From the NCBI GenBank assembly GCA_041742355.1, contig JBGSIV010000198.1, positions 1-38,209 of the forward strand: a stretch of DNA of 38,209 nt, in the 5' to 3' direction. The translations under genes and the position numbers were made by a program. The DNA comes from Candidatus Zixiibacteriota bacterium. GTDB lineage: Bacteria; Zixibacteria; MSB-5A5; GN15; FEB-12. The notes beneath the pieces are model-generated. The model saw only the letters and a list, made by a program, of their open reading frames with translations, was not told the DNA's origin and made no database searches. Of this stretch, positions 26,238 to 35,513 are shown piece after piece. How positions within the stretch are numbered: the stretch's first letter is position 1; the number at the start of each line of letters is the position of its first letter.

Positions 26238-26690
26238 ATGAAGCTCAACAGCGTCCGGGAAATTCTCGAGTTCGCGATTCAGAAAGAACAGGAAGCCGCC
26301 GACTTCTACACCGATCTCGCCAACCGGGTCTCGCGACCCGGCATGAAAAGCGTATTCCAGGGATTCGCCCGGGAAGAGATGGGTCACAAGGCCAAGCTCG
26401 AGGCGGTCAAGGCCGGCAACCGGATGCTCACGTCCGAGCAGAAAATCCTCGATCTAAAAATCGGCGACCATCTCGCCGATATCGACCTCAAGCCGGATAT
26501 GGGCTACCAGGAGGCGCTAATTGTTGCCATGAAGGCCGAGAAGAACGCCTTCATTCTCTATTCCAATCTGGCCTCAGCCACCGATGACCCCGGCCTGCGC
26601 GACATGCTCCTCAGCCTCGCCCAGGAGGAGGCCAAGCATAAGCTCCGTTTCGAAGTCGAGTACGACGATCAGATCCTGACCGAGAACTGA
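26238..26690 (+). CDS. Ferritin-like (rubrerythrin diiron domain) protein
   Basis: AIQKE..A..FY, EE.GH, AMKAE, EEAKH diiron ligands. No rubredoxin tail. GAGGAGG RBS. Confidence 0.92.
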   Translation: MKLNSVREILEFAIQKEQEAADFYTDLANRVSRPGMKSVFQGFAREEMGHKAKLEAVKAGNRMLTSEQKILDLKIGDHLADIDLKPDMGYQEALIVAMKAEKNAFILYSNLASATDDPGLRDMLLSLAQEEAKHKLRFEVEYDDQILTEN

Positions 26691-26775: not shown

Positions 26776-27750
26776 CTACTCGGCCAGCCATCGCGCCACC
26801 TGCGGCGCATGGTACGAGAGGATGATGTCCGCCCCCGCCCGTTTGATCGCGGTCAGGATCTCCATCGTCAGCACCCGCTCGTCGGCAATCCCCCGCTCGG
26901 CCGCCAGTTTAACCATCGTATACTCGCCGCTCACATTGTACGCCGCCACCGGCAGGTGGACCTTCTGGCGCACTTCTTTGATGATGTCGAGGTACGCCAA
27001 CGCCGGCTTGACCATGACGATATCCGCTCCCTCAGCGATATCCAGTGCCACCTCGCGCAGCGCCTCCTGGCTGTTGGCGGCATCCATCTGGTAGCTCCGA
27101 CGGTCCCCGAACTGCGGGGTGGACCCGGCCGCCTCGCGGAACGGTCCGTAGAATGCCGAGGCATACTTGGCCGAGTAGGCCATGATAGGGGTCATGCCGT
27201 GGCCGGAGTTGTCCAGCGCCCGGCGGATCCGTCCCACCCGGCCGTCCATCATGTCGCTGGGCGCCACCAAATCGGCCCCCGCCTCGGCATGGCTCACCGC
27301 CTGCGCCGCCAGTATCTCCAGCGTTTCGTCGTTCTTTACCATACCGTCGCGGATCACGCCGCAGTGGCCGTGATCGGTGTACTCGCACAGGCAGACATCA
27401 GTCACCACCAAGAGATCCGGCACCCCCGCCTTGATTTCACGGATTGCTCGCTGGATGATCCCGTCGTTCTTGAGCGAGGACGAGCCTGAGGCGTCTTTCT
27501 TCGTGGGCGTGCCGAAGAGAATCACCGCCGGAATGCCTAGCTCGAACGCCCGCTTCGCCTCGGTCACCGCCTCGGGAATCGGGAAATTGAATATGCCCGG
27601 CATGCTGGCGATCGGAGTCGCCTTATCGACTACTTCACTGACAAAGATCGGGTAGATGAAGTTATCCGGGGACAGGCTGGTCTCCCGGACCAAGCGACGG
27701 AGTGTCGGTGTGCGGCGAAGGCGGCGCGGGCGTTGTGTCGGAAAACTCAT
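26776..27750 (-). CDS. hemB: Porphobilinogen synthase (Zn-type)
   Basis: RPRRLR, DVCLCEYTDHGHCG, APSDMMDGR, MVKPAL.YLD, YNVSGEY. Confidence 0.99.
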   Translation of the reverse strand: MSFPTQRPRRLRRTPTLRRLVRETSLSPDNFIYPIFVSEVVDKATPIASMPGIFNFPIPEAVTEAKRAFELGIPAVILFGTPTKKDASGSSSLKNDGIIQRAIREIKAGVPDLLVVTDVCLCEYTDHGHCGVIRDGMVKNDETLEILAAQAVSHAEAGADLVAPSDMMDGRVGRIRRALDNSGHGMTPIMAYSAKYASAFYGPFREAAGSTPQFGDRRSYQMDAANSQEALREVALDIAEGADIVMVKPALAYLDIIKEVRQKVHLPVAAYNVSGEYTMVKLAAERGIADERVLTMEILTAIKRAGADIILSYHAPQVARWLAE

Positions 27751-28544
27751 TGCTTCCTCCGAATGGGATTCTCTGCGGCGTACGCCGCCAGTTCGTTGAC
27801 CAGGTCAGGGACCGTATGGCGTGTTGCCTCAAGACCGACCGTCAGCCCCCGGTGGCGCATCACCGCCGAGGTGCTCGGCCCGATTGAAACCAGCAACCCC
27901 GGCGACAGTATCCGATGGATTTCGTCGGCAGTCAAGTTCGCAAAGAGCCCTTCCACCGCACTTCCGCTGGCGAATATGATTACATCGGGCGGAGTGGCGA
28001 AGAGCGCCTGTTTCATCTCCACGGACCAGAGCGGGTGGTACGTCTCGTAGACCGTGAGTGGAACAACCGCCGCACCGGCAGCTGCTACCGCCCGGTCGAG
28101 GCGATCATCGGCCAGGGTTCCCCGTACCCTGACGACCACTGTCCCTTTGAGTGGTGTTTGCGCCGCGAATTCGCGGGCGAAATCCTCGCCGGTCGCCCTA
28201 GCAGGCATGAACTCGACTTCGAGGCCGTGAGCCAGAAGGCTCTCTGCCGTGCCGACGCCGACCGCCGCAGTCCTGAAGTGCCGGACCACGTGTACATCGG
28301 CGCATTGGTGCGGGAGTTGCTCGAAGAAGAACCGTACCCCGTTTTCACTGGTGAATACGAGCCATCCCCCCTGATCCATCGCACCGGCGAAGCGTGTCCA
28401 ACCACTGGGATCGTCCCAACCCCGGGTAGCAATGGCCGGGTAGACCATGACTTCTGCGCCCAGTTCAACCAGCCGCCGCTGCAATGAATCCACTTGATCG
28501 GACGCACGCGTTACCAAGACTCGCACACCAGTCAGCGGCCGCAT
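27747..28544 (-). CDS. hemD: Uroporphyrinogen-III synthase
   Basis: VLVTR, VFTSENGV, AVG.GTA, VYET, FASGSAV, IGPST. Overlaps the hemB start. Confidence 0.93.
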   Translation of the reverse strand: MRPLTGVRVLVTRASDQVDSLQRRLVELGAEVMVYPAIATRGWDDPSGWTRFAGAMDQGGWLVFTSENGVRFFFEQLPHQCADVHVVRHFRTAAVGVGTAESLLAHGLEVEFMPARATGEDFAREFAAQTPLKGTVVVRVRGTLADDRLDRAVAAAGAAVVPLTVYETYHPLWSVEMKQALFATPPDVIIFASGSAVEGLFANLTADEIHRILSPGLLVSIGPSTSAVMRHRGLTVGLEATRHTVPDLVNELAAYAAENPIRRKQ

Positions 28545-28697
28545 ACGAATCCTGTCCGCAATTGGGGGTGGAATACGCTTTCGTGGAGTCGGGCACGGCC
28601 GATTGGTCTCACTGGGTCGTTACTCCTGAAGGCTGTTTCATTCTCCTGTTGTACGCATGGACCCTGCCCGCCGACTGCCCCTCCCTGATCCGGTACC

Positions 28698-28726
28698 AGT
28701 ATACTCGTTCCATCCAGCGGTGGCAA
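28698..28726 (-). promoter_or_regulatory. Putative promoter of hemD-hemB
   Basis: TTGCCA-N17-TATACT on the minus strand. Confidence 0.6.
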
Positions 28727-28749
28727 GCGCCTGGCCGCCCGGATTTCTC

Positions 28750-30453
28750 TCACAGATCCAGACTGACTGTACCCCCGCCGACCACGAACACCCGCGCGAA
28801 ACCCGCCCGTTGCAGAATCAGTCCCGCCTGGTACGCCCGTCCTCCCCGGCGGCAGACGATATAGATGTCTTTGCTCTTGTCCAACCGGGTCGCGCAGATG
28901 CGCAGATCACCCAGTGGGATCTGGCAGACGATGCGGCCATCACGCTGCGGAACCGGCGCCGCTTCGGCCTCGAATCCCTCCCTGACATCGAGCCATAGCA
29001 CGTTCGGATCCTCGTTCAGCCTCGCCTGACATGCGCTGACAAAGCCGATCCCGCGTTCCTGCGCCAGCGCCATCGACGCGAGATTGTGCAGCGGATCCAG
29101 CGCCTCGGCATATGGCGGTGCATAGCCATGCTCAAACTCCAGCAGATCCTCGACTGTGCCGCCGTTCTGGAGAAAAGACGATAAGACATCGATGCGACGG
29201 CAAACATCACCCCTGCCGACTGCCTGCAATCCAAGAAGGCGCATGCTCTCGGGGCAGTAAACGAGCTTGATGTGGAACGACTCGTGTTCAGGATAGTAAT
29301 CGGGCCGATCGTTAAACGCCCCCCACACCGAGCGAAACGAGATGCCTGCGTTCGATGCCGCCTGTTCGGACAGCCCGACCGCTCCGACATTCAGGTCGAA
29401 GGCCTTGATCATCATCGCCCCGGTCACACCGGGGAACCGGGCCGTCTCATTGCCGGCGATGTGCTCGGCGATGACCCGACCATGACGGTTCGCCAGCGAC
29501 CCCATCGGCAAGAAGATCGGTTTCCCCGATGCAAGGCTGCGCGACTCGATGCAATCCCCACCCGCGTATATAGCCGGATCGGAGGTCTGCAGGTGCTCGT
29601 TGACTGTGACTCCGCCGCTTCCACCGATTGCCAGCCCGGCATCGGCGGCCAGTTTCGATTCGGGCCGCACTCCGAGGCAGAGGAGGACATAGTCGGCTTC
29701 GATCGTCTGCGTCTCTCCCTTGCAGTCGACACAAACCGCAGATCGAGCGCCTTTCACAGCGACATGGGTCACTGACGCCTCGGTTAAAACCTCCACCCCT
29801 TTGCGTTCCATCTCTGCGCGCACATACCCGGCCATATCAGGGTCGAGCGCATACGGCAGAAGTCGGTCTTCGCGCTCGATGACGGTGGTCTTGATTCCCC
29901 ACAGTCCTCCAAGCGCTCCGGCCATCTCGCACCCGATGAACCCGCCGCCGATGACGACGGCCTCGCCGATCTTTCCCTGTTCTGCCAGCCGGCGAAACGC
30001 GACAGCGTCCTCTGGCCGGGTGAACGGCCGGATGAGGTCACTTTGAGCGCACGGGAATGGCGGTCGGATAGGCGTCGCGCCGGTGGCGAGGACAAGCTTG
30101 CCGTAGCCGTGTTCGTACTCCTCGCCCGATTCGAGGTTGCGGACCGTAACCGTCTTTTGGTCCCGGTTGATCGCCACTGCCTCGGCCCGCGTGACCACCT
30201 CGACTCCCTTGTAGCGGCAGAAGAACTCCGGTGAGCGCTCTCCTCCCCAAGAGGTGCCGGTCAGCGCGCTCAAATCCTGGATTTCCCCTGAGGCATAGTA
30301 CGGCAGGCCACAGGCCGAGTAAGACACCCGCTGCCCCCGCTCAAAGAGGGTGATGTGCCACTCCGGCTTGCGCCTAGCCAAGGTCGCCGCCGCTTTGGTC
30401 CCGGCGGCGACCCCGCCGATCACTACTACATCCGACGCCGTAAGAGGGGCCAT
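28750..30453 (-). CDS. CoA-disulfide/persulfide reductase family flavoprotein with C-terminal rhodanese (CoADR-RHD/Npsr-like)
   Basis: IGGVAAG FAD motif, SYSACGLPY redox Cys, GGGFIG NAD(P)H site, YAPPY, rhodanese LDVRE...VCRRGGRAY. Confidence 0.9.
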   Translation of the reverse strand: MAPLTASDVVVIGGVAAGTKAAATLARRKPEWHITLFERGQRVSYSACGLPYYASGEIQDLSALTGTSWGGERSPEFFCRYKGVEVVTRAEAVAINRDQKTVTVRNLESGEEYEHGYGKLVLATGATPIRPPFPCAQSDLIRPFTRPEDAVAFRRLAEQGKIGEAVVIGGGFIGCEMAGALGGLWGIKTTVIEREDRLLPYALDPDMAGYVRAEMERKGVEVLTEASVTHVAVKGARSAVCVDCKGETQTIEADYVLLCLGVRPESKLAADAGLAIGGSGGVTVNEHLQTSDPAIYAGGDCIESRSLASGKPIFLPMGSLANRHGRVIAEHIAGNETARFPGVTGAMMIKAFDLNVGAVGLSEQAASNAGISFRSVWGAFNDRPDYYPEHESFHIKLVYCPESMRLLGLQAVGRGDVCRRIDVLSSFLQNGGTVEDLLEFEHGYAPPYAEALDPLHNLASMALAQERGIGFVSACQARLNEDPNVLWLDVREGFEAEAAPVPQRDGRIVCQIPLGDLRICATRLDKSKDIYIVCRRGGRAYQAGLILQRAGFARVFVVGGGTVSLDL

Positions 30454-30511
30454 GAGGTCACCTCAGGGTAAGTTCGTTCCTGGTGGCAGGGAAATGACAG
30501 GTACAGCCGGA

Positions 30512-30829
30512 TCACACGCATCCGGTCGGTTTGGCCAAACCGGCTACCCGGCAGGCTCCTTTGGCCGGACCCGACGGAAACAACTCGTATATCCGCTTCA
30601 GCGGAAATCCGGTCTCTTTGCACATTTTGCGGATCATCGGCGCGATCCCGAACTGCGCATTGTATTCGCGAATGTAGTTGATCAGCTTCCAGTGTTCCTC
30701 GGTGAGTTCGGAGACGCCTTCGGTCGACGCCAGCGCGAGCGCGATCCGCTCGTTCCAGTTCTCCGGCTCCTGCATGAAACCGTCTTCGTCGACTGTGATC
30801 TTCACGTCCTGCCATTCAATCGTTGCCAT
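30512..30829 (-). CDS. dsrC: DsrC sulfur-carrier protein (both C-terminal cysteines present)
   Basis: DEDGF, LTEEHW, LFPSGP, C-terminal C-x10-C-V (ACRVAGLAKPTGCV). GGAGG RBS. Confidence 0.93.
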   Translation of the reverse strand: MATIEWQDVKITVDEDGFMQEPENWNERIALALASTEGVSELTEEHWKLINYIREYNAQFGIAPMIRKMCKETGFPLKRIYELFPSGPAKGACRVAGLAKPTGCV

Positions 30830-30884
30830 TCCAGACCTCCGCTAAATTCCCATTTGTCAGGTGGCGGCACCGCCGCCGAGGGGC

Positions 30885-30913
30885 ATAATAGAAGATCGGA
30901 ACGCCGATATCAA
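30885..30913 (-). promoter_or_regulatory. Promoter of the dsrC-reductase unit
   Basis: TTGATA-N17-TATTAT on the minus strand; ATCGG-N4-CCGAT inverted repeat at 30895-30908. Confidence 0.65.
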
Positions 30914-30982
30914 GGGGGATATTGTCCGCAGGGGCCGTTACGCTGATTCTACTGCCCGGCTCTGCGTCGGGCAAGCTTCGCC

Positions 30983-31011
30983 TTGACGCCCTTGCCGATG
31001 AAAAGTATATT
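30983..31011 (+). promoter_or_regulatory. Promoter of the MerR-dsrMK unit
   Basis: TTGACG-N17-TATATT. Confidence 0.65.
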
Positions 31012-31047
31012 CTCCCATCGACTTTTGAAGAGAAGGCAAGGGACGGC

Positions 31048-31587
31048 ATGGTCGGGCCAACCGACAACACGAAAGACTCGCTTAGGAACAGCCTCCCCTC
31101 TGGCGCCGATCCGGCCGCCTGGGTGCCGACCGTTTCCATCGGCATCGCTGCCCGCCTGCTCAACCTCTCCGTTTCGGCCCTCCGCAAATACGAGACCGAG
31201 GGGCTGATTGTCTACCACCGCACTCAGGGTGCCCGTCGGCTCCTCGCCCCGGCTGATATCGATCGGATCCGACAGATCCAGGCCCTTATCGGCGATTGCG
31301 GGCTTAACATGGAGGGGATCCGCCGCCTCGTTGCCCTGATTCCCTGCTGGGAGTTGATGCCGTGCTCCAGCGAAGACCGGCGGAAGTGCACCGCGACCTC
31401 TGATTACTGCCATCCTTGCTGGATGACCGATCAGACGGAGTGCGCGCGTCACGGGCTCAAGTGCCGCGATTGCCGCGTCTACCGCCGTGCTCTCGACTGG
31501 CTGCCGATCCTGAAGTCCCTCCTGCACGATCCAGCTGTCCGCGAGGCGGCTGCGGCCGACCAGTTTGCGCGGGAGAGTGGCTGTTGA
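31048..31587 (+). CDS. MerR-family regulator with Cys-rich (two-CW) C-terminal domain
   Basis: SIGIAARLL...ALRKYETEGLI...GLNMEGIRR HTH. C-terminal CW-x4-C...CW...C..C..Y segment with 8 Cys. Confidence 0.85.
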   Translation: MVGPTDNTKDSLRNSLPSGADPAAWVPTVSIGIAARLLNLSVSALRKYETEGLIVYHRTQGARRLLAPADIDRIRQIQALIGDCGLNMEGIRRLVALIPCWELMPCSSEDRRKCTATSDYCHPCWMTDQTECARHGLKCRDCRVYRRALDWLPILKSLLHDPAVREAAAADQFARESGC

Positions 31588-32516
31588 CCTGGCTTCAGAT
31601 CTTCATGTATATCGCGTTTGCCGTGTTCGCGGCGGGGACGGCTTGGAAAGTATATAGAATCGCCCGCATGCCGATCCACCTGCGCTGGGATCTCTACCCA
31701 ATCCCCCACGAGAAAGGCAGGGCACACTACGGCGGCTCCTATTACGAGGAATTTGAATGGTGGACTAAACCGAGAGAGACCTCCCGGCTGAATGAGCTGT
31801 GGGCGATGGCGAAGGAGATTTTCTTCATCCAGTCGCTGTATCACCACAATCGCAGCCTGTGGATATGGTCGTTCCCGTTTCACCTCGGGCTGTACCTGCT
31901 CGTTGGCTTTCTCCTGGCGCTGGCGACGGTAGCGCTGGCGGGGACACTGGCCCCTGAGCAGGTGATTTACTCCAGCGCCGGGAGTATCTTTGTCTTCCTT
32001 GCCGCTGCATCGCCGTATATAGGCACAGTCGGCGCACTTTTCCTGACGGTCGGTTCCTTGGGCCTCCTCGTCAGTCGCCTGATCAACCGGGATCTCAGAT
32101 CGGCGTCCGGTCGAACCGACTATTTCAATCTCATGCTGCTCGGTGCGGTCGGAGCCTCCCTGATGGTAACGGATATACGCTCGCGCGCGGGATTCCTCGA
32201 CATCTACTTCTTTATCCGTCACCTCGTGACCTTATCGCCGGCTCAACCGCTCGCACCGGCGGCAACCGCCCACGTCCTCCTCGCCGGGATTTTCCTACTC
32301 TGGCTCCCCATGACCCACATGACCCATTTCGTCGGTAAGTACTTCACTTATCACCGGGTCCGCTGGGAAGACCACCCCAACCTGCGCGGCAGCAAGATTG
32401 AATCCGCCCTCAACAGGTCTCTCGGCTACCCGATCACCTGGTCCGCCCCGCACATCTCCGGCAAGACCTGGGCCGATGCCGCGTCCGCACCCGGCCGGGA
32501 GGAGGAGAAGCCATGA
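31584..32516 (+). CDS. dsrM: DsrM/NarI-type membrane cytochrome b
   Basis: LRWDLYP.PHE, FPFHLG, RTDYFNL, H-x17-H in the last TM. TTG start overlaps the MerR stop (TTGA) with a GGAG RBS; directly precedes dsrK. Confidence 0.8.
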   Translation: MTWLQIFMYIAFAVFAAGTAWKVYRIARMPIHLRWDLYPIPHEKGRAHYGGSYYEEFEWWTKPRETSRLNELWAMAKEIFFIQSLYHHNRSLWIWSFPFHLGLYLLVGFLLALATVALAGTLAPEQVIYSSAGSIFVFLAAASPYIGTVGALFLTVGSLGLLVSRLINRDLRSASGRTDYFNLMLLGAVGASLMVTDIRSRAGFLDIYFFIRHLVTLSPAQPLAPAATAHVLLAGIFLLWLPMTHMTHFVGKYFTYHRVRWEDHPNLRGSKIESALNRSLGYPITWSAPHISGKTWADAASAPGREEEKP

Positions 32517-34129
32517 GCCCCAGGCGCATTTCCATCCGGGATTTCTGCCGCAAGACCGGCCAGTTGGTTGAGCTCGACCCGGGCCAGTTCCTCCCCCTGC
32601 CCGCCCCCTACGACACACTCGAATTTCAGCCAAAGATCAAACCCCTCTCGGAGGACGGGAAGAGAAAGTATGAATCCGACCTTGATGGCGTCTCGGCGGT
32701 GAAACTTCCCCGCCCGCAAACCGAGGACGAAAAGCGCGTGCTCGTCGAGAAATTCCTCACCGGCCTGCGCAAGCTGTTCGAGCAAGAGAACAACTGGACG
32801 TTCATGCAGCCGCTCTTCCTGACCATGGAGTACTGCGCCCGGTGCCAGACATGCGCCTCGGCCTGCCCCATTTACACGGAATCGGACGGTATCGAGATCT
32901 ATCGCCCGACTTTCCGCGCCGACATCCTCCGCCGCCTCTACCGGACCTATGTCAAAGCCAGCGGGCGGCTCACCGCGGTCATCACCGGCAATGGCATCGA
33001 GGCCTCGTGGCAGATGCTCGCCCGCCTTATGGAATTATCTTACCGTTGTACCCTTTGCCGCCGCTGTGCTCAAACGTGTCCAATCGGGGTCGACAACGGC
33101 CTCGTGAGCCGCGAACTCCGCAAGATCTTCAGCCAGGAATTGGGGATTGCCGCTGATTCCCTGCACCGCCAAGGAACGCAACTGCAGCTTTCGGCCGGGT
33201 CGTCGACCGGCATGCCCCCGGCCGCCTTTCTCGACAACATCGAATTCCTCGAAGACGAAGTTGAGGAGCGCACCGGCCGACGCTTCAAGTGGCCGATTGA
33301 TAAGGCCGGCGCCGACGTCCTGCTCATCCACAACGCCGGTGAATTTCTCGCCTGGCCCGAGAACCCCGAAGCCTTTGCGATCATTCTCGAGGCCTGCGGA
33401 GTCAGTTACACGCTTTCCAGCGAAGCGGTGGGCTACGACAGTGTCAACTACGGCGTATGGTACGACGATGTCCAGTTCGCCCGGGTGGCAACCCGCCACG
33501 CCCAAATCGCCAAAAAGCTCGGCGTCAAGAAGATCGTGCTCGGCGAATGCGGCCATGCCCATAAAGCCCTGACAGTGGTCGCCGACCGCGTGTTCACCGG
33601 CGACAATAACATCCCCCGCGAAAGCTCCCTGACTTTCCTGCACCAACTGATTGTCAAGGAGCAGCGCCTCAAGCTCGATCCCGCGCGCAACGACGACATC
33701 ATCACAACCCTGCACGACCCGTGCAACATGGTTCGCCTCATGGGCATCGTGCAGCCGCAGCGGGACCTCCTGCGGGCCGTGAGCAACAACTTCCGTGAGA
33801 TGGAACCCCACGGTGTGGAGAACTACTGCTGCGGCGGCGGCTCCGGTTTCGCCATCACGCAGGACCTCAACTTCCCCGACTGGCGGCACAGTCTCTCCGG
33901 GCGGGCCAAAATGCGGCAGATTCTCGATGTTTTCCACGATGTTCTCGATCCCGAGACGAAGAAATACGTCTGCGCCCCCTGCTCCAACTGCAAAGGGGCA
34001 TTGCGCGACCTGTTCGCCTCCTACGGCCTCTTTGACCGCTGCAATGTCCTCTACGGCGGCCTGGTCGAGCTGATTGTCAACGCCATGGTCGATCTCGACC
34101 GCCCCTATATCGAGTGGGACTGGCACTAA
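32513..34129 (+). CDS. dsrK: DsrK/HdrD-like Fe-S oxidoreductase
   Basis: Two CxxCxxCxxxCP motifs; GECGH, HDPCN, CCGGG, CAPCSNC (CCG domain). ATGA overlap with dsrM. Confidence 0.9.
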   Translation: MSPRRISIRDFCRKTGQLVELDPGQFLPLPAPYDTLEFQPKIKPLSEDGKRKYESDLDGVSAVKLPRPQTEDEKRVLVEKFLTGLRKLFEQENNWTFMQPLFLTMEYCARCQTCASACPIYTESDGIEIYRPTFRADILRRLYRTYVKASGRLTAVITGNGIEASWQMLARLMELSYRCTLCRRCAQTCPIGVDNGLVSRELRKIFSQELGIAADSLHRQGTQLQLSAGSSTGMPPAAFLDNIEFLEDEVEERTGRRFKWPIDKAGADVLLIHNAGEFLAWPENPEAFAIILEACGVSYTLSSEAVGYDSVNYGVWYDDVQFARVATRHAQIAKKLGVKKIVLGECGHAHKALTVVADRVFTGDNNIPRESSLTFLHQLIVKEQRLKLDPARNDDIITTLHDPCNMVRLMGIVQPQRDLLRAVSNNFREMEPHGVENYCCGGGSGFAITQDLNFPDWRHSLSGRAKMRQILDVFHDVLDPETKKYVCAPCSNCKGALRDLFASYGLFDRCNVLYGGLVELIVNAMVDLDRPYIEWDWH

Positions 34130-34152
34130 GGCCAGCCGGCTGCCGGCTATGC

Positions 34153-34185
34153 AAAACCCCCGTGCCTTTCGGCTCCGGGGGCTTT
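34153..34185. terminator. Hairpin between convergent dsrK and beta-barrel genes
   Basis: AAAACCCCCG-TGCC-TTTC-GGCTC-CGGGGGCTTT, an imperfect stem with A/T flanks. Confidence 0.6.
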
Positions 34186-34208
34186 GGTTCCCTGAACCGA
34201 TCTATTCT

Positions 34209-34763
34209 TTACAATCCAACCATGATGCCGATTGTTACCAGGTAGAAATTCTGATCGTCGGTGATCAACCCCGAGGGATCCTCAATCCCCTGATCGAGGA
34301 GGACATACCGGAGGTCACCCGTCAGCAGCGCCCGTTCCCCGAGGGGCAACTCCAACCCACCTCCGAAATGCCAGCCGATTTCGCTGTCTGTGTCGTCCGC
34401 CAGATCGACATTGTCCTCGTTCCGGTCGGTCGATGTGTTGTACACGCCGAGGCCGAGCAGTCCGTAGATCGTCTCCACGGGATAGAACATGGCCGTGGCC
34501 AGTACGGGCCACGTCTTCACCGTCAGTTCGTCATCCCCGAATTCCTCTTGGCGGTAATTGATCGCTCCCTCCAGTCCCAGGACATCGGCGACCTTGAAAC
34601 GAACAGCCGCCCCGATCCCGGCGGTGATGTCATCGTCGTCGATGTCGTTCGTGTACAAGCCCACCTGGGGTCCGATATACACCGGGCGATCGGTGTCCTG
34701 AGCAAACGCCGTCGGTGCCGTCAGCACCGCCAATGCAAGCATTGACAGAATTATGCGCCACAT
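34209..34763 (-). CDS. Small outer membrane beta-barrel protein (OMP_b-brl-like), paralog A
   Basis: Signal peptide ending AFA-Q, about 8 amphipathic strands, GWHFGGG. GGGAG RBS before the ATG at 34763. Confidence 0.85.
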   Translation of the reverse strand: MWRIILSMLALAVLTAPTAFAQDTDRPVYIGPQVGLYTNDIDDDDITAGIGAAVRFKVADVLGLEGAINYRQEEFGDDELTVKTWPVLATAMFYPVETIYGLLGLGVYNTSTDRNEDNVDLADDTDSEIGWHFGGGLELPLGERALLTGDLRYVLLDQGIEDPSGLITDDQNFYLVTIGIMVGL

Positions 34764-34894
34764 GATTGCCACTCCCTTCTCATTTCACCGGCCCGCGGAT
34801 ACCGGAGCATTCTGCACTCGGTTAAACGCAGCATCTGCCAACCGGTGGCCCATGGAACCTGCCACTCGCTGCGGGCGGCAAGCCTCCCCGGAAT

Positions 34895-34922
34895 ACCGGT
34901 GTCCCGACTGCGGAACACCGGT
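34895..34922 (-). terminator. Hairpin between the two beta-barrel paralogs
   Basis: ACCGGTGTTCCG-CAGT-CGGGACACCGGT on the minus strand. Confidence 0.5.
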
Positions 34923-34958
34923 GACCTCATCAGTCAGAATCAAATCCCCCGGCCCTTG

Positions 34959-35513
34959 TCACCCCCCGAAGAGCAGCCCGATCGTGATGACATAGAAATT
35001 GGCGTCCGTTCCTTCAGACCCGGGAACCCGCTCAAAGTCGTAGTCGAGGAAGACGTACCGAACGTCGCCGGTCAGTCTCGCCTGCGGTCCCAGCGGAACT
35101 TCCACCCCACCGCCGAAATGCCAACCGAACTCCTGCTCGGTGTTGTCGTCTCGGTCAACCACGTCCTCATCCCAATCGAACGTCGTGTTGTACCATCCCG
35201 CGCCGACCGCGCCATAGATAACCGGTAACGGGTAAATCATGCCCGTCACCATGACCGGCCAAGACCGAACCGTCAGTTCGTCGTCGAAGAAATCTTCCTG
35301 GCGGTAGTTGACGGAGCCTTCGATACCCAGCGCAGGGAGGAACCGCAGGCGCAGCGCCCCGCCGACCATCACGCGGAAGTCGTCGTCAGAATCCTCGGTA
35401 TTGTAGAGGCCGACCTGCGGCCCGATCGAGAGCGACACCATATCCCCCTGAGCCAGCACCCCCGGCGCAGCCAGAAGCACCAGGGCCAATCCCAACATCA
35501 TGTTTCGAACCAT
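34959..35513 (-). CDS. Small outer membrane beta-barrel protein, paralog B
   Basis: Signal peptide ending VLA-Q. Shares IGPQVGLY, NYRQE, DDELTV, GWHFGGG and LTGD.RYV with paralog A. Confidence 0.85.
   Translation of the reverse strand: MVRNMMLGLALVLLAAPGVLAQGDMVSLSIGPQVGLYNTEDSDDDFRVMVGGALRLRFLPALGIEGSVNYRQEDFFDDELTVRSWPVMVTGMIYPLPVIYGAVGAGWYNTTFDWDEDVVDRDDNTEQEFGWHFGGGVEVPLGPQARLTGDVRYVFLDYDFERVPGSEGTDANFYVITIGLLFGG

Follow-up and report, generated by a model that had tools for sequence, protein, structure and literature searches.

What can DsrC and a DsrMK-type membrane complex do in a genome without the sulfite reductase DsrAB? The question is raised by a stretch of 38,209 nucleotides (nt) from a Candidatus Zixiibacteriota bacterium (contig JBGSIV010000198.1 of assembly GCA_041742355.1; hereafter the window), where five genes are all present and intact: an Npsr-type flavoprotein gene (npsr), dsrC, merR, dsrM and dsrK. 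A first-pass annotation viewed these as a purpose-built, self-contained module in which the flavoprotein stands in for DsrAB. They are instead, with near certainty, what three deletions have left of the phylum's dsr-haem cluster, dsrK2-dsrM2-merR <> qmoAB-dsrABDNL-dsrC-dsrTMKJOP-npsr-hemA-sirC-cobA/hemD-hemB. The source genome of the window is termed G000 and its congeners are G001, G002 and G003; other G and L numbers denote genomes and loci of further relatives.

Origin of the locus

The features that bear on the origin are as follows.

26238..26690, plus strand: rubrerythrin/ferritin-like gene, the cluster end in G001 and G002 and close by in several other relatives
26776..27750, minus strand: hemB (porphobilinogen synthase), ancestral-cluster member by family scans and relatives' maps
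27747..28544, minus strand: hemD (uroporphyrinogen-III synthase), ancestral-cluster member by family scans and relatives' maps
28545..28749: joint of 205 nt, site of the lost hemA, sirC/cysG-N and cobA half of cobA-hemD
28750..30453, minus strand: predicted Npsr-type CoA-persulfide reductase with C-terminal rhodanese, 567 amino acids (aa); Pfam Pyr_redox_2, Pyr_redox_dim and Rhodanese
30454..30511: joint of 58 nt, site of the lost dsrT-M-K-J-O-P (~5.75 kb in G001)
30512..30829, minus strand: dsrC with C93 and C104, 105 aa, above the TIGR03342 cut-off
30830..31047: divergent promoter region and joint of the lost qmoAB-like genes and dsrA-B-D-N-L (~10.5 kb in G001)
31048..31587, plus strand: MerR/HspR-like regulator with Cys-rich C-terminal domain, 179 aa from the ATG at 31048, by family scans
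31584..32516, plus strand: DsrM2-type NarI-family membrane cytochrome b, by family scans and alignment
32513..34129, plus strand: DsrK2-type CCG/FeS protein, by family scans and alignment

Much of the first-pass description of these genes stands: the two DsrC cysteines in a C-x10-C arrangement (C93-x10-C104), a distance of exactly 58 nt between dsrC and a CoADR-rhodanese-type flavoprotein gene, and a coupled MerR-dsrM-dsrK unit divergent from both, with 4-nt overlaps at the merR-dsrM and dsrM-dsrK joints.

A cluster that recurs in relatives comprises qmoAB-like genes, dsrA-B-D-N-L-C-T-M-K-J-O-P, the flavoprotein gene, hemA, sirC/cysG-N, cobA-hemD and hemB. G001 displays the full cluster with the same ends as the window: an additional dsrK-dsrM-merR unit without JOP is oriented away from the cluster start, and a ferritin-like gene lies at the cluster end. 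The window is the G001 arrangement minus three blocks, namely ~10.5 kb that separate merR from dsrC there, ~5.75 kb that separate dsrC from the flavoprotein gene, and hemA-sirC together with the cobA half of the cobA-hemD fusion. The order dsrC...dsrP-npsr-hem is shared by at least 12 relatives beyond G001. Thus dsrC adjoins the flavoprotein gene only because dsrTMKJOP has been deleted between them. Nor is the cluster bounded by unrelated genes, as had been thought: hemD, hemB and the ferritin-like gene on the left are the tail of the relatives' canonical dsr cluster. The cobA-hemD fusion encodes 512-516 aa in G001 and G002, and G000 keeps the 265-aa HemD half alone; siroheme-only genes have been pruned and HemD kept. 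Searches of the three joints for traces of the lost genes gave noise only.

The same reduced order is found in G002 (98% complete, 7 contigs), there without merR and with the full cobA-hemD; no dsrA, NIR_SIR domain, aprA or MKJOP-type DsrK was found in that genome. G000 and G002 are sisters in trees of RpoB (support 99/98), DsrK (99) and Npsr (92/92), with the dsrAB-bearing G001 and G003 outside; dsrAB is present in two of the three congeners of G000. The simplest reading is therefore a single loss in the ancestor of G000 and G002. The remnant origin rests on synteny and trees, both DsrK trees being quick trees. A metagenome locus with the reduced layout, L263, was considered as a second lineage and rejected, as its sequence is identical to the G002 region.

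The deletion joints are not assembly artefacts, because contigs from two sources run through them. One contig from run X1, possibly the window's own source, covers 30377-35500 without a break, and an X2 contig from a separate study crosses the dsrC-merR joint (30626-31046) with 0 differences.

Other relatives display related states of decay. L352:1721-4075 of G232, where dsrA and dsrL are present as fragments along with dsrD, cysG-N and an intact dsrC, seems to represent a less advanced state of this decay. An independent remnant is found in G170 (L258:8845-10851, L233), where dsrC, with one in-frame TAA, has the ferritin-like gene and a shortened cobA-hemD as neighbours; npsr has been lost, and dsrM2K2 is on another contig.

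A genome in which no sulfite reductase was found

G000 is a metagenome-assembled genome of 310 contigs that is 93.76% complete. Profile searches of the whole of it gave neither a dsrA match nor a NIR_SIR domain. With relatives' proteins as queries, tblastn found nothing in it for dsrA, B, D, N, T, J or P, for MKJOP-type dsrM, or for sat and aprAB, and aprA was below the cut-off in the profile search. Also not found in G000 are dsrL, MKJOP-type dsrK, dsrO, qmo and siroheme genes, and there is no cobA or sirC match elsewhere. DsrL-like matches on contigs C122 and C153 (37%) were rejected as NuoF/GltD-like; true orthologues are 56-72% alike. The whole-genome search agrees with the first-pass observation that the window has no dsrAB, dsrD, dsrT or dsrJOP. 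The refuting case named there, dsrAB elsewhere in a split canonical pathway, did not occur in searches of G000 and G002. G000 has a single dsrC and a single DsrK-like gene; of the minimal sulfite-reduction set DsrABCMK it has DsrC and has neither DsrA nor DsrB. No sulfite or sulfate reduction is predicted from its gene content.

Compared with the canonical cluster of Zixibacteria and Acidobacteria, as given in passages of PMC10504309, bioRxiv 2023.06.27.546762 and PMC7596348, the locus has an orthologous DsrC and has inherited npsr, hemD, hemB and the gene order, whereas dsrA, B, D, N, L, T, M, K, J, O, P, qmo, sat, apr and siroheme genes of the cluster were not found. What G000 does encode includes haem-copper oxidases, ACIII-like and NrfD modules, two NuoG-containing complex I operons and two hdrCBA-mvhDGA operons (C299:12991-22634, L250; C40:18202-24695, L249). 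In the C299 operon hdrA is split around nuoE/nuoF-like genes, and both Hdr operons are unlinked to the dsrC locus. No Psr/Phs-type molybdoenzyme was found in G000, both PF00384 matches being NuoG-like.

Distribution in the phylum

Among 208 genomes of the phylum, each at least 90% complete, dsrA is found in 78, a flavoprotein orthologue in 75, this type of DsrK in 83, HdrB in 104 and full-length DsrC in 123. The flavoprotein is present in 73 of the 78 dsrA genomes and in 2 of the 130 dsrA-less ones, the two being G000 and G002; it is missing from 46 of the 48 dsrA-less genomes that keep DsrC. As kin are not independent, Fisher tests on these co-occurrences overstate. In metagenomes, 17 of the best 80 loci are at ≥49% identity, and 13 of the 17 lie beside dsrTMKJOP genes; one has the reduced layout and is identical to G002, and three start at a contig edge, with hemA/cysG downstream. 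Nine more distant metagenome loci also lie near dsr genes. Given these counts and the position of the metagenome loci, the flavoprotein is a companion of DsrAB, not a substitute. The first-pass expectation that it is enriched where dsrAB is missing, in a conserved linkage, thereby failed: of 80 DsrK loci, viewed with flanks of up to 8 kb, one has such a flavoprotein. The five-gene layout itself is not conserved either, G002 having no merR at the locus. For 50 of the 80 DsrK loci viewed genome-wide, a set that partly overlaps the phylum set and carries no completeness figures, dsrA is present in 30 and Npsr at ≥50% identity in 17, 16 of these with dsrA.

Seven dsrA-less genomes carry this DsrK. 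Each of the seven has HdrB and a dsrC of the C-x10-C type, which in one genome contains an in-frame stop; five are without the flavoprotein, and none yielded an MKJOP-type DsrK. By the quick DsrK tree they represent at least three, probably four to five, separate lineages.

Another arrangement is seen in 8 of 12 sampled dsrA-less genomes with DsrC: a unit of dsrC (C-x10-C), a narI-like gene and an HmcF/TmcB-like CCG gene. It is found at L208:9176-11512, L209, L210, L346, L348, L349, L350, L353, L354, L356 and L357, a list that spans G027, G017, G021 and others, and by eye it is usually beside a gene whose N-terminus resembles class-V aminotransferases/cysteine desulfurases. This second unit that is independent of DsrAB is common in the phylum, and it may be a cysteine-to-DsrC persulfide system.

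The flavoprotein and DsrC

The best match of the flavoprotein in the PDB is 6PFZ, the Npsr of Archaeoglobus fulgidus (E 2e-112). The protein has the features of Npsr/CoADR-RHD enzymes: FAD and NAD(P)H Rossmann domains, one redox cysteine (Cys48) and a C-terminal rhodanese with its cysteine (Cys534). C48, E193 and C534 are invariant in 19 of 19 aligned orthologues; the acidic E193 would mark the flavoprotein as NADH type. The pocket-closing loop of A. fulgidus Npsr aligns with residues 67-73. The score is below the TIGR03385 cut-off for CoADR (375.6/578.8). CoA binding and persulfide reductase activity are predicted by analogy with a single structure, 6PFZ. A search of plasmids gave only distant CoADR-RHD proteins, of <60% identity. 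At two positions the protein departs from its orthologues: residue 19 is Thr, against Pro in the 16 orthologues that cover the column, and residue 538, past the rhodanese Cys, is Gly, against Pro in most.

The A. fulgidus enzyme uses NADH and reduces persulfides and polysulfides, not the disulfides of CoA, glutathione or cystine; a passage of the same paper proposes protection against S0, states that no role is known and calls Npsr in sulfate reducers an oddity (PMC7969121). With the known enzymes (6PFZ; 3NTA, 3ICR, 8A56) the flavoprotein shares domain order, redox and rhodanese cysteines, the pocket-closing loop and a YAPPY-type motif. It differs in being a fixed member of the dsr cluster across the phylum, whereas the A. 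fulgidus paper, in the portion covered, does not contain the term 'dsr'. Zixibacteria have been listed as reductive Dsr carriers in passages that are silent on the flavoprotein (bioRxiv 2023.06.27.546762, PMC11406059, PMC7596348). The part of the literature covered holds no account of Npsr as a dsr-cluster gene or of such a remnant.

DsrC is an orthologue, 72-83% identical to the dsrC product of the relatives' dsrAB cluster. Unusual DsrC-like sequences occur elsewhere. Tandem DsrC-like domains in one open reading frame (L237/L240; G002:C3:754041-754673) are found in many relatives; they have no C-terminal arm and match model positions 2-101 only, and G000 has no such match. At L347:4817-6379 of G122, a DsrC domain with both cysteines ends a 520-aa open reading frame, an apparent fusion. 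Genes judged from sequence to encode SQR-like flavoproteins lie near dsrC in G244 (L217:11581-14999) and G234 (L351:6022-8413); by the same judgement L217 also has an ArsR-rhodanese gene and L351 a DsrE-like gene.

DsrM2K2, a paralogue of the DsrMKJOP subunits

The identification of dsrM and dsrK holds in part: they form a real MK pair, yet both fall below the NCBIfam MKJOP cut-offs (DsrM 24.5/300, DsrK 329.8/400; the G001 MKJOP copy scores 526 and 719) and are dsrM2K2 paralogues. There is no dsrJ or dsrP match in the genome, and the pair, without JOP, is close to known paralogues, as in DsrMK-only complexes. DsrK is 58-79% identical to the products of 80 loci, many of them beside dsrAB or a second, MKJOP-type cluster.

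The defining residues of DsrK, the relay Cys/His and Asp500, are taken from a passage of bioRxiv 10.64898/2026.08.25.746951. DsrK of the window has two [4Fe-4S] motifs for cubane clusters, the relay C346/H348 at the positions of Cys329/His331, and one non-cubane site (C404, C439, C440, C490, C493). Its CxxC (C490/C493) has Cys in place of the Asp500 of MKJOP DsrK (CxxD), and Cys is found there in all 80 subfamily loci. A passage of the same preprint ties the single cluster and relay Cys/His to DsrC-sulfane chemistry and reports that DsrMKJOP can add extra sulfur to DsrC. A sequence search of the PDB with DsrK alone gave nothing at 1e-10, and a profile found only 9OJN.

DsrM keeps H100, H230 and H248 and has Leu110 at the second helix-2 His of MKJOP-type DsrM, so that it departs from the four-His, two-haem pattern of NarI-like DsrM. 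That His is found in 9 of 9 MKJOP-type DsrM, 21 of 75 MK-type DsrM and none of the 27 closest homologues. When NarI is aligned to DsrM, with H56/H205 taken to be the proximal and H66/H187 the distal haem ligands, the protein probably has no distal haem and holds one haem only. By NarI numbering, this DsrM should then have no periplasm-side quinol site of the kind proposed for DsrMK complexes. Foldseek with a model of DsrM gave NarI as best match (E 2.6e-3), a result that holds no residue-level haem geometry.

Second dsrMK copies have been recorded in passages of PMC6018796, PMC6338057 and PMC8477390, and PMC10504309 describes a basal DsrMK-only clade in which 7 of 74 bacterial assemblies are without DsrAB. 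The present subfamily is assigned to that clade by gene context, not by a shared tree. With the dsrM2K2 or DsrMK-only type (PMC6018796; PMC10504309; 'DsrM-1' of bioRxiv 10.64898/2026.08.25.746951, each covered in part) it shares NarI-like and CCG/FeS subunits without J, O and P. In most relatives it stands beside a second, MKJOP-type copy, whereas in G000 it is the only Dsr membrane complex; and the DsrMK of the passages covered has two haems with conserved His, whereas here the second helix-2 His is missing. The part of the literature covered describes no one-haem DsrM; the supplementary DsrM and DsrK alignments of the 2026 preprint, outside that part, could affect what is said here on the His and on Asp/Cys.

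Selection on the retained genes

Between G000 and G002 the ratio of nonsynonymous to synonymous substitution rates (dN/dS) is 0.12 for dsrC, 0.11 for dsrK, 0.27 for npsr and 0.30 for dsrM, at dS 1.0-1.2 and with bootstrap upper limits of 0.14-0.41. The four genes of G000 contain no nonsense change, against about 81 expected without selection. Continued function of the retained genes is very likely. An important part of the first-pass proposal thereby gains support: because DsrC, DsrMK and the persulfide reductase have been kept intact under purifying selection without dsrAB in two sister species, a role independent of DsrAB is likely, though the idea of a stand-in flavoprotein is not supported.

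Proposed function and its alternatives

There is perhaps an even chance that DsrC, DsrM2K2 and Npsr carry out sulfane-sulfur housekeeping chemistry; the origin and maintenance of the genes are observed, and every chemical step is inferred. On the simplest reading, the sulfite reductase and its activator disappeared in the ancestor of G000 and G002, together with the siroheme-specific genes and the energy-conserving MKJOP complex; dsrC, npsr and the M2K2 paralogue were kept and have been under purifying selection since. The three retained components would be a sulfane-sulfur housekeeping arm that never depended on DsrAB turnover. The C-terminal cysteines of DsrC might take sulfane sulfur as a persulfide, either from polysulfide/sulfide chemistry or from a sulfurtransferase, and DsrK2 might accept it at the relay Cys346 and its single non-cubane cluster. 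DsrM2K2 would trade electrons with menaquinone via a probably single, cytoplasm-side haem, an arrangement that would give no proton-motive redox loop. With NADH as reductant, Npsr might free CoA and small thiols, and possibly DsrC too, of surplus persulfide and release H2S. The net role would be sulfane-sulfur tolerance and redox balance in a facultative aerobe that has given up sulfite respiration, and not a new respiratory pathway. Sulfane chemistry is favoured because DsrK2 has a single non-cubane cluster and the relay Cys.

Several points weigh against this proposal. No sulfur donor for DsrC was found in G000, where there is no second rhodanese at E<1e-3 and the SQR-like match is weak, and the three components may have been kept for separate reasons. 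The loss could also have come after the split of G000 and G002, as two parallel losses, and part of the selection signal would then predate it. The dN/dS values are above those of dsrAB-bearing pairs (npsr 0.27 vs 0.10-0.20, dsrK 0.11 vs 0.03-0.09, dsrM 0.30 vs 0.12-0.16), and these Nei-Gojobori estimates are rough near synonymous saturation. An in-frame stop in G170 dsrC and a frameshift in G177 dsrK represent decay or sequencing errors. Since the controls hemD (0.22 vs 0.13-0.15) and rpoB (0.095 vs 0.076) shift in the same way, selection on the G000 and G002 genes is at most partly relaxed.

The main alternative, possible if somewhat unlikely, is that DsrC is a plain dithiol/disulfide shuttle, with HdrABC-MvhADG reducing the DsrC disulfide and bifurcating to ferredoxin, DsrM2K2 running in reverse to pass electrons from DsrC to menaquinone and on to oxidases, and Npsr acting separately as a persulfide scavenger. 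G000 has the two hdrCBA-mvhDGA operons, with HdrB 79% identical in G002, as well as ACIII-like genes and haem-copper oxidases. All 7 dsrA-less DsrK2 genomes have HdrB, vs 49 of 123 with neither dsrA nor DsrK2; for the 130 dsrA-less genomes, in which kin are not independent, it is found in 34 of the 48 with DsrC vs 22 of the 82 without. Against the shuttle, the two genes are also found apart, HdrB without full DsrC in 22 dsrA-less genomes and DsrC without HdrB in 14. DsrC interacts with Flx-Hdr in Desulfovibrio vulgaris, as cited in passages of PMC10504309 and PMC10553843, and DsrC with Flx-Hdr in syntrophs is discussed in passages of PMC6687939, PMC7082340 and PMC10553843. The likeness to the FlxABCD-HdrABC/DsrC partnership extends, as far as these sources were covered, to DsrC outside sulfite reduction and HdrABC encoded in G000; the Hdr operons of G000 differ in carrying Mvh (one with a Nuo/Bfu-like insert), not Flx, and in being unlinked to dsrC. 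The Hdr-like fifth Cys of DsrK2 and the missing distal haem would fit a downhill, non-electrogenic thiol:quinone direction, but DsrK2 has one non-cubane cluster, whereas Hdr disulfide cleavage uses a pair. The original proposal, that the flavoprotein replaces DsrAB by loading sulfane sulfur on DsrC for quinol-driven reduction, or by passing electrons from NADH through DsrC to the quinone pool, with the three parts forming a dedicated circuit, is improbable. It accords with the retention of npsr beside dsrC in both sister species while at least 14 other genes were lost, and with the two intact cysteines of the flavoprotein, whose surface rhodanese Cys could in principle swap sulfur with the mobile C-terminal Cys of DsrC. 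The flavoprotein nevertheless goes with DsrAB in the phylum, the G170 remnant retained dsrC beside cobA-hemD and lost npsr, and the closest characterised enzyme was inactive on the three biological disulfides tested, according to a passage of PMC7969121. The two complex I operons already serve NADH:quinone transfer. Menaquinol has a potential of about -74 mV and polysulfide about -260 mV, so that the quinol-driven step would be uphill on these values.

That the locus is a slowly decaying relic, in which npsr and dsrC persist as the upstream part of the needed hemD-hemB while dsrM2K2 drifts, is very improbable. The dN/dS is up to ~3 times that of dsrAB-bearing pairs, the DsrK branches are ~2 times as long as in G001 and G003, merR is lost in G002, and pseudogene-like copies occur in G170, G177 and G232. 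Yet the dN/dS intervals are far below 1 even at their tops, the expected stops are missing, all catalytic cysteines are retained, and operon position shields a promoter and not coding sequence. Scarcely credible is a split or mis-assembled canonical pathway, with dsrAB and the rest in the missing 6% of the genome. The fragmented, incomplete assembly and the dsrAB of two congeners would leave room for it, but the deletion joints are internal to the contig and independent contigs run across them, and over a dozen genes are missing together, with the same losses in the more complete G002.

Other features of the locus

Signals in and next to the locus include the following.

30913-30885, minus strand, and 30983-31011, plus strand: sigma70-like sites, consensus match only
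34164..34182, plus strand: terminator-like hairpin 3′ of dsrK, weak

Within 28400-34300 there are 5 promoter-like sites vs 1.3 ± 1.1 in shuffles (consensus match only). Terminator-like sites number 8 vs 4.1 ± 2.0 in shuffles (weak). The likely start of merR is 31048; its longest open reading frame begins at 30922. Its product has ~7 conserved Cys in the C-terminal domain and may be a redox or sulfur sensor. In 13 of 80 DsrK loci (15 loci with a match), and also in G001, merR is immediately upstream of dsrM, and in several relatives an Rrf2 regulator has the same place upstream of dsrM2. Tandem outer-membrane beta-barrel paralogues (PF13505; 34209-34772 and 34959-35546) follow straight after dsrK and lie outside the dsr cluster in G002.

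Significance

The locus is real and maintained, and it is an evolutionary remnant of a known cluster, not a new module. Its value is that of a natural deletion experiment on DsrC, DsrM2K2 and Npsr. The widespread dsrM2K2 paralogue has stayed with DsrC through repeated losses of dsrAB, with no MKJOP-type DsrK found, and its residues predict another haem content and cluster ligation. Npsr is nearly fixed in the dsr cluster of the phylum, which suggests that it cleans up DsrC or CoA that has become over-sulfurated. As many dsrA-less genomes of the phylum (48 of 130) have DsrC, dsrC or dsrMK alone is no marker of sulfate reduction.

A bolder proposal, which must be regarded as unlikely, is that DsrM2K2 is a distinct one-haem, all-cysteine DsrC-persulfide:menaquinone oxidoreductase that, with DsrC and the cluster-encoded Npsr, forms a sulfane-sulfur cycle beside DsrAB in sulfate reducers and alone after its loss. 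Should such a hidden second cycle exist, DsrC-borne sulfur from sulfide or polysulfide would undergo oxidation or reduction at the membrane, with NADH providing the reset. As natural deletion mutants, G000 and G002 would then show this second DsrC cycle on its own, and the linkage of npsr and dsr genes throughout the phylum would explain the presence of Npsr in sulfate reducers that are unable to respire S0.

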